Positions 9,046 to 15,843 of a stretch of 31,307 nucleotides of DNA are shown piece by piece. The first letter of the stretch is position 1, and every line of letters begins with the position of its first letter. The DNA lies in contig CAZMWZ010000010.1 in NCBI GenBank assembly GCA_964570045.1, positions 1 through 31,307 on the forward strand, read 5' to 3'. A model generated the notes under the pieces. That model had not been told where the DNA came from. It did no database searches and worked only from the letters and a program-made list of their open reading frames with translations. Source of the stretch: an uncultured Spirochaetaceae bacterium (GTDB taxonomy: Bacteria; Spirochaetota; Spirochaetia; SZUA-6; DRHE01). Made by a program: the position numbers and the translations under genes.

Positions 9046-9642
9046 GTGCCAAACCTGACCCGGTACCTGATCCCGAGTTTCCTTTCCCTCGTCGTGCTCC
9101 TGCTGGCCGGCTGCGCCGGCCGGCAAGCGGGCGGCCGCACCGTCGGCCGTGCGGTCGGCGCCAGCGGCGACCCCCCGACCTCCCTGTACCTGCAGCTGGT
9201 GGACGGTCTGCACGTCACCGGGACCCCGGTGGCTGTGGACAGCGAGAGCTTCCGCCTGCGGGTCGGGGGAGCCGTGGAACGGCCGCTGTCGCTGAGCCTC
9301 GCGCAGCTGCGCGGGATGCCGGCCGTGCGCGCAGACATCACCCTCGTGTGCCCCGGATTTTTCACGGACCGCGGAGTCTGGACCGGGGTGCCGGTGCGCG
9401 ACCTGCTGGCGCTGGCCGGGGTGCGCCCCGGGGCCGACCGGGTCGTGTTCACCAGCCTGAGCCAGGGTTACACCTCGGCTCTGTCCCTGGCGGACCTGGA
9501 GCGCGACGGGGTCCTGGTGGCCTATGAGTTCGACGGCAAGCCTTTCCCCGTGGTGCACGGGTACCCGCTGCGCCTGACGGCCAAGGACCACGAGGGCAAC
9601 GTCTGGGTCAAGTGGCTGGGGGAGATCCAGGTAAGCGAGTAG
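9046..9642 (+). CDS. molybdopterin-dependent oxidoreductase (sulfite-oxidase/MsrP catalytic domain), predicted lipoprotein
   Basis: Mo-ligand Cys in TLVCPG, WTGVPVRDLL, VAYEFDGKP...HGYPLRL, WVKWL. N-terminal hydrophobic stretch ends in lipobox LAGC. AGGAG SD before GTG 9046. Confidence 0.85.
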   Translation: MPNLTRYLIPSFLSLVVLLLAGCAGRQAGGRTVGRAVGASGDPPTSLYLQLVDGLHVTGTPVAVDSESFRLRVGGAVERPLSLSLAQLRGMPAVRADITLVCPGFFTDRGVWTGVPVRDLLALAGVRPGADRVVFTSLSQGYTSALSLADLERDGVLVAYEFDGKPFPVVHGYPLRLTAKDHEGNVWVKWLGEIQVSE

Positions 9643-12883: not shown

Positions 12884-13105
12884 ATGAGGACGAAGAAGAG
12901 TAACAGCCCGAGGATCGGGGAGACTCTGGTGCGGGTCGGGGCTATGACGGAAGCCCAGGTCAGGGAAGTGCTCTACATCCAGCGGGAAAAATACAACTTC
13001 GAGAAGATGTTCGGCGAGATCGCCCTCGAGCTCCAGCTAGTGGACCAGGAAACCATCGAGAAGATCCTCTCCGGGACGTACTCCCCGCCGAAAAGCTCCG
13101 CCTAG
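12884..13105 (+). CDS. stand-alone MshEN-type (c-di-GMP-binding motif) small protein, 73 aa
   Basis: RIGETLVRVGAMTEAQVREVLYIQ matches RLGxxLvxxGlIxxeqLxxaLxxQ. A degenerate second repeat reads KMFGEIALELQLVDQETIEKIL. Confidence 0.75.
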   Translation: MRTKKSNSPRIGETLVRVGAMTEAQVREVLYIQREKYNFEKMFGEIALELQLVDQETIEKILSGTYSPPKSSA

Positions 13106-14340
13106 AGCAGAAACCCCAGCACCTCGTCAATGCGGCTCAGCTCGGCGCGCAGGCGCCTGGCCAGGGCCGCGGGCAGCCGCTGGCGGGACCGCCCGAGAGC
13201 CGCGAGGCGGGCGTGGATGGCGTCCACCGCCTTGCCCACCGACAGGTCCGCATCCAGGTTGCCCTCGAAGTCCTCGCGCAGGGCCCCGATCTGGGCCTGG
13301 ACTCGCCGGGCCTCGGCGTCCGGCAGGCTGGGGCCCCCACCGGCCGTGAGCAGAGCGGCCAGGGAGCGCAGGGCATCCAGGCGGGAGGCCGCCTTGCGGA
13401 GGTTTTCGCGCGTCAGGTTCAGACGGCGGCGGTAGTGCTTGTAGAGCAGGAAGAAGCGCAGGTGGTGCGGCTCCAGTCCTCCCCCCAGCAGGTCCTCCGC
13501 GTAGCGGATGTTCCCCCGGCTCTTGGACATCGGCTTGCCCTCCACGATCAGGTGGGCGCCGTGCAGGTAGTAGTTGGCGTAGCTCTTCCCGGACAGGGAT
13601 TCGAGGATGGCGATGTTGTAGTCGTGGTGCCGGTAGATGTTGTCGATCCCGCCGCAGTTGATGTCCACCTGGAAACCGAGGTGCTCCGTGATCATGGCCG
13701 GGTCCTGGATGTTCCAGGAAGGGCGCCCGCGCCCGATCGCCGTGTCCCACACGCTTAAGTCGCCGTTCCTCTGCCCATGCCACAGGATGAAGTCGCCCAG
13801 GTTCCAGCGCTGCCCGTGGTAGGTGTCCTTCCTGAAGCGCACCTTGGTTTTCGGCCAGCGGCTCAAGTCCAGGCGGTACAGCTTGCCGAAATCCTTGTAC
13901 TTCAGGGGCTCGAAGAACACGTCGCCTTCGTGCCAGTAGGCCAGGCCTTTGGCCAGGAGGCGCCGGATCAGGCTCACGGCCTGGGGAACGCTGGTCGAAG
14001 CCCTGGCGATGGTGCGCGGCAGGCGGATCTTCAGCAGCCTGGCCTCGCTGAAGAAGCGCTCCGCGACCTCGGCGGCGATGGCCCGGGGTTTTCTGCCCTC
14101 CCGGACCGCCTCTTCCAGCATCTTGTCCTCGACGTCCGTGAAGTTGATCACCCGCTGGACCTCCAGGCCGCGGTAGGCCAGGTAGCGCACCAGGATGTCC
14201 TCATAGAGGAAAGTCCGGTAGTTGCCCACGTGCGGGCGCCGGTAGGTGGAAGGACCGCAGGTGAAGATCTTGACTCGGCCCTTCACCCGCGGGCGGAACT
14301 CTTCCTCGGTGCGGCTCATGGTGTTGTACAGCTTCAGCAT
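13102..14340 (-). CDS. cysteinyl-tRNA-synthetase paralog, non-canonical active site, lacking the anticodon-binding domain (412 aa)
   Basis: MLKLYNTM, CGPSTY..PHVGN, NFTDVEDK, DFILW, MSKSRGN, then a DALR-like helix ending at VLGFLL. WHIECSAM is replaced by WNIQDPAM and PHHENE by RHHDYN. Confidence 0.85.
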   Translation of the reverse strand: MLKLYNTMSRTEEEFRPRVKGRVKIFTCGPSTYRRPHVGNYRTFLYEDILVRYLAYRGLEVQRVINFTDVEDKMLEEAVREGRKPRAIAAEVAERFFSEARLLKIRLPRTIARASTSVPQAVSLIRRLLAKGLAYWHEGDVFFEPLKYKDFGKLYRLDLSRWPKTKVRFRKDTYHGQRWNLGDFILWHGQRNGDLSVWDTAIGRGRPSWNIQDPAMITEHLGFQVDINCGGIDNIYRHHDYNIAILESLSGKSYANYYLHGAHLIVEGKPMSKSRGNIRYAEDLLGGGLEPHHLRFFLLYKHYRRRLNLTRENLRKAASRLDALRSLAALLTAGGGPSLPDAEARRVQAQIGALREDFEGNLDADLSVGKAVDAIHARLAALGRSRQRLPAALARRLRAELSRIDEVLGFLL

Positions 14341-14346
14341 GCGGGT

Positions 14347-14375
14347 AAAATACTGCGCCTGCCCCCGCAAAGCAA
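14347..14375 (-). promoter_or_regulatory. promoter of the CysRS paralog (TTGCTT-N17-TATTTT), leaderless geometry
   Basis: -10 at 14352-14347, ATG 14340 six nt downstream, no SD. Confidence 0.55.
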
Positions 14376-14416: not shown

Positions 14417-15412
14417 ATGGCAGACCTGAGCACCACGTACCTGGGGCTATCCCTGTGCAGCCCGTTCATCGCCGGGGCCAGCGGCTATACGGCCAATGTG
14501 GAGCGAAGCAAGCAGCTACAGGAGGCCGGGGCCGCAGCCCTGGTGACCGCCTCCCTGTTCGAGGAGCAGATCCAGTACGAGAGCTACCGCCTGGAGGAGG
14601 ACCTGTCGCGCTTCGACAACCTGTCCCAGGAGGTGGTCGACGTGTTCCCGCAGATCAAGCACGGCGGGGCCAAGGAGCACCTGATGTGGATCCGGCGCAC
14701 CCGGGAAGCGGTGCGCATCCCGGTGATCGCCAGCCTGAACGCGGTCAGCCGCGACACCTGGGTGCGCTACTCCCAGGAGCTGGAGGGCGCGGGGGCGGAT
14801 GCCCTGGAGCTCAACTTCTACGCCACCCCCAGCGACGCGGAGTCCGGGGCCGCCGAGATCGAGAAGGAGCAGCTGGCCGCCATCCGCGCCGTGGTGAAAA
14901 AGGTGAAGATCCCGGTCAGCGTGAAGCTCAGCGCCTTCTACACCAACCCCCTGCACTTCCTCACGGCACTGGACCAGGAGGGGGTGCGCGGCTTCGTGCT
15001 GTTCAATCGCCTGTTCCAGCCGGACCTGGACCCCGAGCGCGAGGCCAACCGCTACAACCACACCCTCAGCGCGGAGGGCGAGCACCTGGCAGCTTTGCGC
15101 TTCACGGCCCTGGCCTATGGGAATCTGGGAGGGGACCTGTGCGCCAACGGGGGGATTTTCACGGCGGCCGACGCGGCCAAGCTGCTGCTGGCCGGCGCCG
15201 CCTGCGTGCAGGTGGTCAGCACGCTGTACCGCAACAAGATCGCCTACCTGGCCACCCTGGTCCGGGAGCTGGACGCCTGGATGCAGGCCAAAGGTTACCG
15301 CGACCTCGCGGCCTTCCGCGGCAGGCTCAGCGCCCGGAAGAACAGCGACCCGGGTTTCTACCGCCGGGCCCAGTACGTCAAGAACCTGCTGCGCGCCGAC
15401 TACTCGGACTGA
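14417..15412 (+). CDS. dihydroorotate dehydrogenase-like flavoprotein (DHOD_like family)
   Basis: LSTTYLGLSL.SPFIAGAS, SLFEEQI, PVIASLN, ALELN, VSVKLS, VLFNR, GGIFT, VQVVSTLY. AGGAGG SD. Confidence 0.9.
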   Translation: MADLSTTYLGLSLCSPFIAGASGYTANVERSKQLQEAGAAALVTASLFEEQIQYESYRLEEDLSRFDNLSQEVVDVFPQIKHGGAKEHLMWIRRTREAVRIPVIASLNAVSRDTWVRYSQELEGAGADALELNFYATPSDAESGAAEIEKEQLAAIRAVVKKVKIPVSVKLSAFYTNPLHFLTALDQEGVRGFVLFNRLFQPDLDPEREANRYNHTLSAEGEHLAALRFTALAYGNLGGDLCANGGIFTAADAAKLLLAGAACVQVVSTLYRNKIAYLATLVRELDAWMQAKGYRDLAAFRGRLSARKNSDPGFYRRAQYVKNLLRADYSD

Positions 15413-15723
15413 AGCAGGGCCTGAAGTTCGCGGTACGCCTCTTCCCGCTGCTCGACCTTGGTCTCCCGGATCGCCTTGCGCAGGACGTTCTCCCACTGGC
15501 TTTCGGGGAGGTGCTGCTTCATGTCGGCGAAAAGCCCCTTGATCTGCTCGTTGCCCTTGAGGTTGTAGATCTTTTTCTGGTCGTGGAACAGCAAGGTGCC
15601 CAGCTTCTTGAGATAGTCGCCGACCGAGCCACCGCGGCCCTCCAGGCGCTTCTCGATGAGCTCCTGCTTCTTCTTGGCCTGTTTCAGGTCGCGGTCGATC
15701 CTGTTGATGTCCGTGCTTTTCAT
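15400..15723 (-). CDS. hypothetical protein, 107 aa, charged and helical
   Basis: MKSTDINRIDRDLKQAKKKQE...; GAGGT SD; TTGTTT-N18-TATAGT promoter at 15775-15746; gene-like codon usage. Confidence 0.7.
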   Translation of the reverse strand: MKSTDINRIDRDLKQAKKKQELIEKRLEGRGGSVGDYLKKLGTLLFHDQKKIYNLKGNEQIKGLFADMKQHLPESQWENVLRKAIRETKVEQREEAYRELQALLQSE

Positions 15724-15814
15724 GGGAATACCTCGTATTGCAGCTACTATATCGCGAACCAAGCTCCTGAAACAAGCCACCTGCATGTTCATGCAGGTGG
15801 CGCATGATTTTTGA

Positions 15815-15843
15815 TTGACAACCACCGGGGGCAGTGGTAGTCT
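15815..15843 (+). promoter_or_regulatory. sigma70 promoter of the acyl-CoA ligase operon (TTGACA-N17-TAGTCT, extended -10)
   Basis: Perfect -35 at 15815-15820, TGG before the -10 at 15838-15843. Confidence 0.65.

Follow-up and report, generated by a model that had tools for sequence, protein, structure and literature searches.

The window analyzed here is the whole 31,307-nt stretch of contig CAZMWZ010000010.1 (assembly GCA_964570045.1), from an uncultured Spirochaetaceae bacterium, and the gene of interest lies on its minus strand at 13102–14340. This unbroken open reading frame (ORF) encodes 412 amino acids, ends in TAG, and specifies a class I ligase of the cysteinyl-tRNA synthetase (CysRS) fold. 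The Pfam model of the CysRS catalytic domain (PF01406) matches residues 16–318 with 238 bits. The NCBIfam equivalog model for cysS (TIGR00435) matches over model positions 1–398 of 466, with a score (278.6 bits) below its cut-off of 340. The model for MshC (TIGR03447) gives 192.3 bits, far below its cut-off of 485, in line with a preliminary description of this DNA, made from the letters alone, which had held the protein to be something other than MshC. Base-by-base checking found each motif quoted in that description at its position. The HVGN, PMSKS and CGP motifs, said there to be intact, are seen in the alignment described below, with C28 and G29 conserved in 100% of the family. Since HIGN is the commonest form in canonical CysRS as well (86% in the alignment), HVGN is not degenerate.

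A longer version of the ORF could be read from an ATG at 14469, but homologues begin at MLKLYN, which supports the start at 14340. A –10-like hexamer stands just before this start (Table 1), and a leaderless start is plausible from the sequence there; a consensus scan called no promoter at 14347–14352. In two sediment metatranscriptome runs, contigs at 95–99% identity span most of the gene, and their depth drops at the divergent intergenic region, around the hexamer.

The preliminary description had called the gene a paralogue. Indeed, a canonical cysS is present elsewhere in the genome (381 contigs, 95% complete): contig C56 encodes a CysRS with WHIEC, HHTNE and KMAKS that scores 460 bits, so the gene in the window is not the housekeeping enzyme. 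All five other carrier genomes checked (Desulfoferrobacter suflitae and three complete chromosomes among them) likewise encode both a canonical CysRS (470–569 bits) and the paralogue (265–337 bits). The two kinds of protein differ in charge. The median isoelectric point (pI) of the family is 8.96 (net +7), versus 5.83 (net –10) for canonical CysRS. The contrast also exists within the window's genome (pI 10.0 versus 5.86), and is thus not an effect of high GC content. Separately, a third CysRS-like region, scoring 238–261 bits, was seen within open frames of ∼800 aa in Desulfoferrobacter (G001:C53:233096-234484) and Syntrophobacter (G002:C1:5026267-5027652).

To map residues, 122 family members were aligned with 98 canonical CysRS and E. 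coli CysS (b0526), whose numbering is used unless otherwise noted. Invariant in the family are C28, G29, H37, G39, N40, T68, D69, D72, K73 and W205 (W209 in the window protein), as well as GGxD, H234/H235, the M-S-K-S motif with its second Lys, R290, H297-Y298-R299 and the DALR-like F...DL...A motif of the helical bundle. K269 is retained in the window protein. In CysRS, T68 and D69 hold the α-amino group of the substrate. Judged by these residues, the protein has the ATP site and α-amino contacts of a functional class I enzyme.

The side-chain end of the pocket is another matter. The zinc ligands of CysRS, as Newberry et al. reportedly established in 2002, are Cys28, Cys209, His234 and Glu238. 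In the family, these positions read C, D, H and N, invariantly, and alignment to E. coli CysS bears out the earlier reading that Cys209 has become Asp and Glu238 Asn with His234 kept. H206N, E208Q, C209D, S210P, P233R, E236D, N237Y and E238N all changed and were then fixed at 99–100%, with H224N at 93%. From this pattern, the side-chain and metal site looks to have been redesigned as one unit. Further invariant residues lie in CP1 (W162, P163, F169, T173, Y174, G176, R178, W179 and N180, in window-protein numbering). CysRS discriminates its substrate by a zinc–thiolate bond (PMC7373986), and its CP1 region reads the first pair of the acceptor stem (PMC5389517).

These changes define a family rather than a single odd protein. 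We took as members proteins of ∼400–440 aa with TCGPSxY, GRP[SA]WN[IV]QDP, GGIDNxxRHHDY[NT] and MSKS that fall in the same clade; the window protein fits. A 90%-clustered protein collection holds >120 full-length relatives at ≥54% identity, all with the changed motifs, and an exhaustive search of 50% clusters returned a handful of family representatives followed by canonical CysRS. Scanning a single genome per species with two patterns gave at most 542 loci that encode a relative, an upper bound in that one of the patterns may also match the short archaeal forms discussed below. The best 80 of these 542 loci belong to Spirochaetota, Leptospirales metagenome-assembled genomes (MAGs), Syntrophobacteraceae, Desulfobacteraceae, Desulfarculales and one Acidobacteriota MAG. 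The family is mainly one of Spirochaetota and Desulfobacterota, anaerobic sediment bacteria. The paralogue was present in 18 of 301 genomes in an even sample of the phylum, and in one other spirochaete family in 15 of 61 genomes, spread over 3 of 25 genera. This patchy distribution was probably shaped by gene transfer. Public records name the members 'cysteinyl-tRNA synthetase', 'class I tRNA ligase family protein' or 'hypothetical'. Literature searches returned nothing on the clade, in keeping with the earlier view that it is undescribed, and CysRS* and MshC are the only CysRS paralogues named in a review from 2022 (PMC9437257).

Could this be a copy without catalytic activity or one in decay, such as a regulatory pseudo-enzyme or a relic? 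The sub-threshold cysS score is all that speaks for this. Against orthologues at 97% to 67% identity, the ratio of nonsynonymous to synonymous substitution (dN/dS) is 0.17–0.27, and the ATP motifs and K273 (window-protein numbering) are invariant. The frame is intact in the homologues listed, except P0126, which is apparently frame-shifted. Conservation contradicts decay, which the preliminary description had also argued against, and we consider this explanation the least credible of all.

In a tree of 71 rows (IQ-TREE quick search, LG+C20; MshC and CysRS* left out), the family forms a single clade (100*) on a long stem, with the window protein inside it. By this placement the family is monophyletic and descends from cysteinyl-tRNA synthetase. 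The preliminary description had proposed setting homologues with WNIQD against both CysRS and MshC; they do form a separate 100* clade among CysRS, and MshC was not among the rows. The family clade lies within a larger one (99*) that also includes short, zinc-intact archaeal CysRS-like proteins (P0137, P0139 and P0141; 405–413 aa, pI near 10), which have CGPS for CGPT and keep WHIEC and HHENE. Relatives of P0137 are labelled Micrarchaeota. The ∼1-Mb genomes with P0139 and P0141 (those of loci L087 and L089, the two checked) both contain a canonical CysRS as well, so the short archaeal forms are likewise paralogues. They appear uncharacterised. Their genes adjoin thioredoxin and/or an ABC-2 exporter pair, with EF-G and SerRS genes also alongside. 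We considered whether the ABC-2 pairs beside the bacterial and archaeal short forms are orthologous, and rejected the idea since their identity of 30–34% is generic.

Several other CysRS-like proteins (P0175, P0235, P0236 and P0255, of 399–462 aa, and P0142, of 858 aa) have WHIED for WHIEC, some with the Cys moved into HHECE. The four WHIED proteins placed in the tree all lie inside canonical clades. Going by these sequences, a CysRS with Asp at position 209 may still work.

The C-terminus is shortened. Residue 407 of the window protein aligns to residue 390 of 461 in E. coli CysS, and the protein ends near E. coli residue 395, with ∼66 C-terminal residues absent; the preliminary description had put the deficit at ∼60 residues of the anticodon domain. 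Its statement that there is no anticodon domain holds for the terminal α/β domain that reads the anticodon. It does not hold for the DALR-like helical bundle, which is retained, with the DALR-2-like motif kept as F358..DADLSVGKA. An AlphaFold2 model built from a 19-row family alignment (pLDDT 91.7, pTM 0.91; confidence lowest at residues 175–178) consists of a Rossmann core, a CP insertion, a stem-contact fold and a four-helix bundle at 311–408. Foldseek searches with this model returned CysRS 8qhp first (TM-score 0.89), the tRNA complex 1u0b at 0.85, and MshC at 0.81–0.82. No domain fusions were found, long ORFs reflecting upstream in-frame read-through only. The gene is, then, an intact member of a monophyletic, uncharacterised and selected CysRS-derived family that has kept the ATP and α-amino contacts and lacks the terminal anticodon reader.

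To examine gene context, ORFs from 81 loci were clustered, recurrent neighbours were annotated, and the 143 immediate neighbours were tallied by Pfam family without bias. The tally was ABC_tran 12, DHO_dh 9, CNNM 8, GFO/IDH/MocA 7, Rpe 5, PRAI 5 and FBA 4, and the arrangements vary by clade (Table 1). In the window, the 73-aa protein encoded downstream matches NF053729, an MshE-related motif that binds cyclic di-GMP (47 bits, cut-off 38). Its gene is convergent with the paralogue, overlaps the stop codon of the latter by 4 nt, and is conserved in the window's clade only (9 loci); it is the only conserved small ORF near the gene, and no carrier protein was found there. The product of the divergent neighbour is no true PyrD but matches NF005741, 'dihydroorotate dehydrogenase-like protein' (325 bits), and the gene beyond this neighbour encodes an LB_289 family protein (NF047642). 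Neither of these two tracks the paralogue outside the window's clade. In the other spirochaete family, 0 of 15 carriers but 14 non-carriers have the dihydroorotate dehydrogenase-like gene, which was rejected as a partner. The conserved neighbours proposed earlier (dihydroorotate dehydrogenase-like, DUF3786 and MshEN) turn out to be limited to the window's own clade. In one spirochaete clade, a gene for a YdjM/YbcI-family (PF04307) membrane protein lies downstream of the paralogue–ABC-2 block (L038 13275–14285). In E. coli, ybcI (PF04307) follows cysS (L090 3533–4001), a likeness that is probably coincidence.

Table 1. Features of the CysRS-fold paralogue, its surroundings and related loci. Positions are those of the window unless a locus is named; DHOD, dihydroorotate dehydrogenase; SD, Shine–Dalgarno element.
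Feature	Position	Strand	Basis or remark
CysRS-fold paralogue (P0001), 412 aa plus stop	13102–14340	-	Pfam PF01406, TIGR00435, AlphaFold2, Foldseek
–10-like hexamer TATTTT, separated from the ATG by 6 nt that contain no SD	14347–14352	-	Base-level check
CGPS; C28 and G29 kept, canonical Thr31 is Ser here	14248–14259	-	Alignment; C28 and G29 100% in family
HVGN, HIGH-type ATP motif	14221–14232	-	Alignment
TDVEDK; T68 and D69 kept	14122–14139	-	T68, D69, D72 and K73 invariant in family and canonical CysRS
Lys/Arg-rich CP1 segment WPKTKVRFRKDTYHGQRWN, family-specific; W162-P163 and G176 inserted	13801–13857	-	Alignment
WNIQD in place of WHIEC (H206N, E208Q, C209D)	13702–13716	-	100% conserved in 122 family members
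GGIDNIYRHHDYN in place of GGxDLxFPHHENE (P233R, E236D, N237Y, E238N); H234 and H235 kept	13615–13653	-	Alignment
PMSKS, KMSKS loop; second Lys (K273, catalytic) invariant, first position K/T/P	13519–13533	-	Alignment
DALR-2-like motif FEGNLDADLSVGKA of the retained helical bundle	13228–13269	-	Alignment; AlphaFold2 helices 311–408
MshEN-like small gene, 73 aa	12884–13102	+	NF053729
DHOD-like gene	14450–15409	+	NF005741
LB_289 family gene	15403–15825	-	NF047642
Clade of the window: DHOD-like gene transcribed divergently; DUF3786 gene and small MshEN-like gene downstream of the paralogue			
One spirochaete clade: divergent patatin gene; paralogue coupled with genes for an ABC-2 ATPase and permease at –4 to +67 nt			
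Leptospirales-type clade: paralogue placed after glmS and rpe			rpe-to-gene gap 6–8 nt
Another spirochaete clade: paralogue between an aldo-keto reductase gene and fba			
Desulfobacterota: genes for a hydrolase-OsmC fusion, HPF-CSD and CorC on the upstream side, trpF on the downstream side			
Short basic zinc-intact CysRS paralogues, small archaeal genomes	L087 6001–7242; L089 6001–7227; also L088, L092, L093		

Loss of the anticodon reader with retention of the bundle raises the question of whether the enzyme is directed to RNA. Like GluQRS or the proposed CysRS*, it could dock on the acceptor arm, or on another RNA, without use of an anticodon, and aminoacylate a special tRNA or a modified nucleoside. 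Consistent with this, the protein is basic, unlike canonical CysRS, and has an invariant basic CP1 segment where CysRS reads the first acceptor pair. The R295...H302-Y303-R304 motif of the stem-contact fold (window-protein numbering) and the helical bundle are kept, and the context is of a housekeeping kind, with HPF-CSD, ClpS and ribosome-binding GTPases in the family and EF-G and SerRS in the archaeal sisters. But tRNA genes are lacking beside the paralogue, both in the window and at 34 of 36 loci scanned (the other two have an ordinary tRNA-Met and tRNA-Leu nearby), and selB is not adjacent. In the window's genome, ARAGORN found only ordinary tRNAs plus tRNA-Sec and tRNA-Pyl, and neither selenocysteine (Sec) nor pyrrolysine (Pyl) tracks the family. 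Relative to the core, the helical bundle is no better conserved than in canonical CysRS; this equal ratio is uninformative on tRNA binding. On balance, we regard an RNA-directed enzyme as somewhat unlikely.

One particular RNA partner deserves separate mention. CysRS* of Mukai et al. serves selC* tRNA-Cys(UCA) in UGA recoding. It too has lost the anticodon-binding end and has a changed CP1, it occurs in Desulfobacterota, and the window's genome uses selenocysteine, with a tRNA-Sec(UCA) gene on contig C275 (567–659, minus strand). Yet the selC*-selB*-cysS* operon that defines CysRS* is not seen: neither selB nor a tRNA-Sec-like gene flanks the paralogue at the loci examined, no selB appears among the clustered or tallied neighbours, the window has no tRNA gene at all, and the 36 loci scanned contain no tRNA-Sec-like gene. 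In the other spirochaete family, selB is present in 56 of 61 genomes and the paralogue in only 15, and on this count a link to selenocysteine was rejected. Moreover, an enzyme that charges cysteine should retain the zinc site. It is very improbable that the paralogue is CysRS*.

Two further routes were tried and dropped. None of these 61 genomes, carriers among them, was found to have PylS, and neither SepCysS nor SepRS was found in the window's genome (95% complete); links to pyrrolysine and phosphoserine, respectively, were rejected. ARAGORN found no tRNA-Cys, tRNA-Ile or tRNA-Trp in this genome, absences that mean little in so fragmented an assembly. A pyrrolysine system does exist in the genome, outside the window, on contig C97 (locus L095, 5234–10558). 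There, a single in-frame stop, at a point where the model continues, interrupts each of two genes, one MttB-like (TIGR02369) and one MtbB-like (TIGR02368); after them come a corrinoid protein gene, tRNA-Pyl(CUA) at 9485–9556, and the start of a PylS C-terminal-type gene that runs off the contig.

The enzyme might instead have remained specific for cysteine, as a back-up or stress CysRS or a ligase making a low-molecular-weight thiol, with a Cys-Asp-His metal site. C28 and H234 do not vary, and Asp can serve well as a zinc ligand; full-length WHIED CysRS proteins lie inside canonical clades; the sister clade is zinc-intact and sits beside thioredoxin; and 14 Desulfobacterota loci have a gene for a hydrolase-OsmC fusion upstream. 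Against these stand nine pocket positions that changed together and then froze, including E238N and the second-shell changes H206N, E208Q and H224N, with a new Arg and a new Tyr. The score is under the cysS cut-off, and the anticodon reader needed for recognition of GCA is missing. Continued cysteine specificity thus seems decidedly unlikely to us.

How, then, might the enzyme work? An aminoacyl-adenylate would still be made, from an α-amino acid, given the kept HIGN, GGxD, K273, G29, T68/D69 and W205. The side chain would be read by C28, D213, H238/H239 and N242 (window-protein numbering), together with the new R237, Y241, N210 and Q212, in place of the Cys2-His-Glu zinc site. Because this site was rebuilt, the substrate or the metal has presumably changed; E238, E208, H206 and H224 (E. 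coli numbering) were lost jointly and R237 and Y241 gained, which points to a different side chain or metal. The activated group would then be passed to an acceptor chosen without an anticodon. Taken as a whole, the paralogue is possibly a new class I ligase, one acting on a substrate other than cysteine (a small polar or anionic amino acid held by the Arg/Tyr/Asn/Asp set) and on an undescribed acceptor, be it an exported aminosugar phosphate or envelope precursor or a site in RNA. We offer this with some reserve.

As for the acceptor itself, we tentatively favor, at somewhat less than even confidence, a tRNA-independent ligation of the MshC type onto an amino group of a small molecule or envelope precursor that is phosphorylated or anionic in some other way, such as an aminosugar phosphate. 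An acceptor other than tRNA is favored because the truncation is the same as in MshC, because the archaeal sister paralogues adjoin thioredoxin and ABC-2 exporter genes, and because one spirochaete clade couples the gene to an ABC-2 exporter pair. In other clades the gene seems to share an operon with glmS-rpe, or has fba alongside, which hints at a sugar phosphate, and the basic pI of the family and the Lys/Arg-rich CP1 favor an anionic acceptor. An RNA acceptor read without its anticodon ranks a close second to the small molecule, though it is rather doubtful.

Several points weigh against a rebuilt enzyme with a small-molecule acceptor. The basic surface and the conserved CP1 loop fit RNA binding equally well. 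Judging by the residues that remain, a zinc site of Cys28, Asp and His that binds a thiolate is still conceivable, and the substrate is possibly still cysteine. No partner is conserved across lineages, the top neighbour family being ABC_tran at 12 of 143, and no glycosyltransferase, deacetylase, carrier protein or tRNA recurs among the neighbours; this scattered, housekeeping-like context would suit an enzyme tied to translation no less than one of metabolism. Coverage in the RNA libraries is equally even across the neighbouring genes on both strands, and DNA carry-over is possible. Finally, the whole case comes from sequence, context and predicted structure.

Synthetase paralogues that dropped tRNA reading have repeatedly proved to be makers of important molecules or modifications: MshC serves mycothiol synthesis, GluQRS makes glutamyl-queuosine, and EpmA lysylates EF-P. 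If the proposal is true, anaerobic spirochaetes and sulfate reducers would possess a new metabolite or a new RNA modification. The family is widespread in anoxic sediments, its pocket rebuilt once and fixed since, and the cultured carriers Desulfoferrobacter suflitae and Salinispira pacifica make it testable. Routine mis-annotation as cysteinyl-tRNA synthetase in metagenome records can also distort inferences from aminoacyl-tRNA synthetase copy number.

Among known systems, canonical CysS (E. coli 1LI5/1U0B, and 8QHP) has the same fold as the family (TM-score 0.85–0.89, ∼30% identity) and shares HIGN, GGxD, MSKS, C28, G29, T68, W205, H234/H235, the HYR motif of the stem-contact fold and the DALR-like bundle. 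The family differs in two of four zinc ligands and in seven nearby pocket residues; it lacks the terminal α/β domain, has a remodelled CP1 and is basic rather than acidic; its members are second copies in all genomes checked and score below the TIGR00435 cut-off. MshC (3C8Z, 8HFM), the L-cysteine:GlcN-Ins ligase of mycothiol synthesis, is of similar length with the same truncation of the anticodon end (TM-score 0.81–0.82) and, as we propose for the family, is a CysRS-derived ligase that forms an adenylate. MshC retains WHIEC and the zinc site, and acts with MshA, MshB and MshD in Actinomycetota. The family, in contrast, is found outside Actinomycetota and has the WNIQD/HHDYN pocket. No MshA-, MshB- or MshD-like genes were found among the annotated flanking genes, in a search that covered neighbours and not whole genomes, and glycosyltransferase and PIG-L are absent from the 25 commonest families of the 143 immediate neighbours.

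CysRS* (Mukai et al. 2017) is encoded in a selC*-selB*-cysS* operon in Desulfobacterales and is thought to charge cysteine (PMC5389517). The family has in common with it a second CysRS copy, occurrence in anaerobic Desulfobacterota, the missing anticodon-binding domain and an altered CP1, the last two of which are not specific to CysRS*. It differs from CysRS* in the absence of selC*/selB* neighbours, the rebuilt pocket and the wider taxonomic range. GluQRS (YadB), a stand-alone class I paralogue of GluRS, has lost the anticodon-binding part and has no dedicated operon (reviewed in PMC9437257), and it keeps the amino acid of its parent. It resembles the window family as a stand-alone paralogue without an anticodon reader, but the parent synthetase is different, and for the family the present analysis gave no evidence of an RNA target. 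The short archaeal paralogues, set apart by their WHIEC/HHENE pocket and their thioredoxin and ABC-2 neighbours, are the nearest relatives in the tree.

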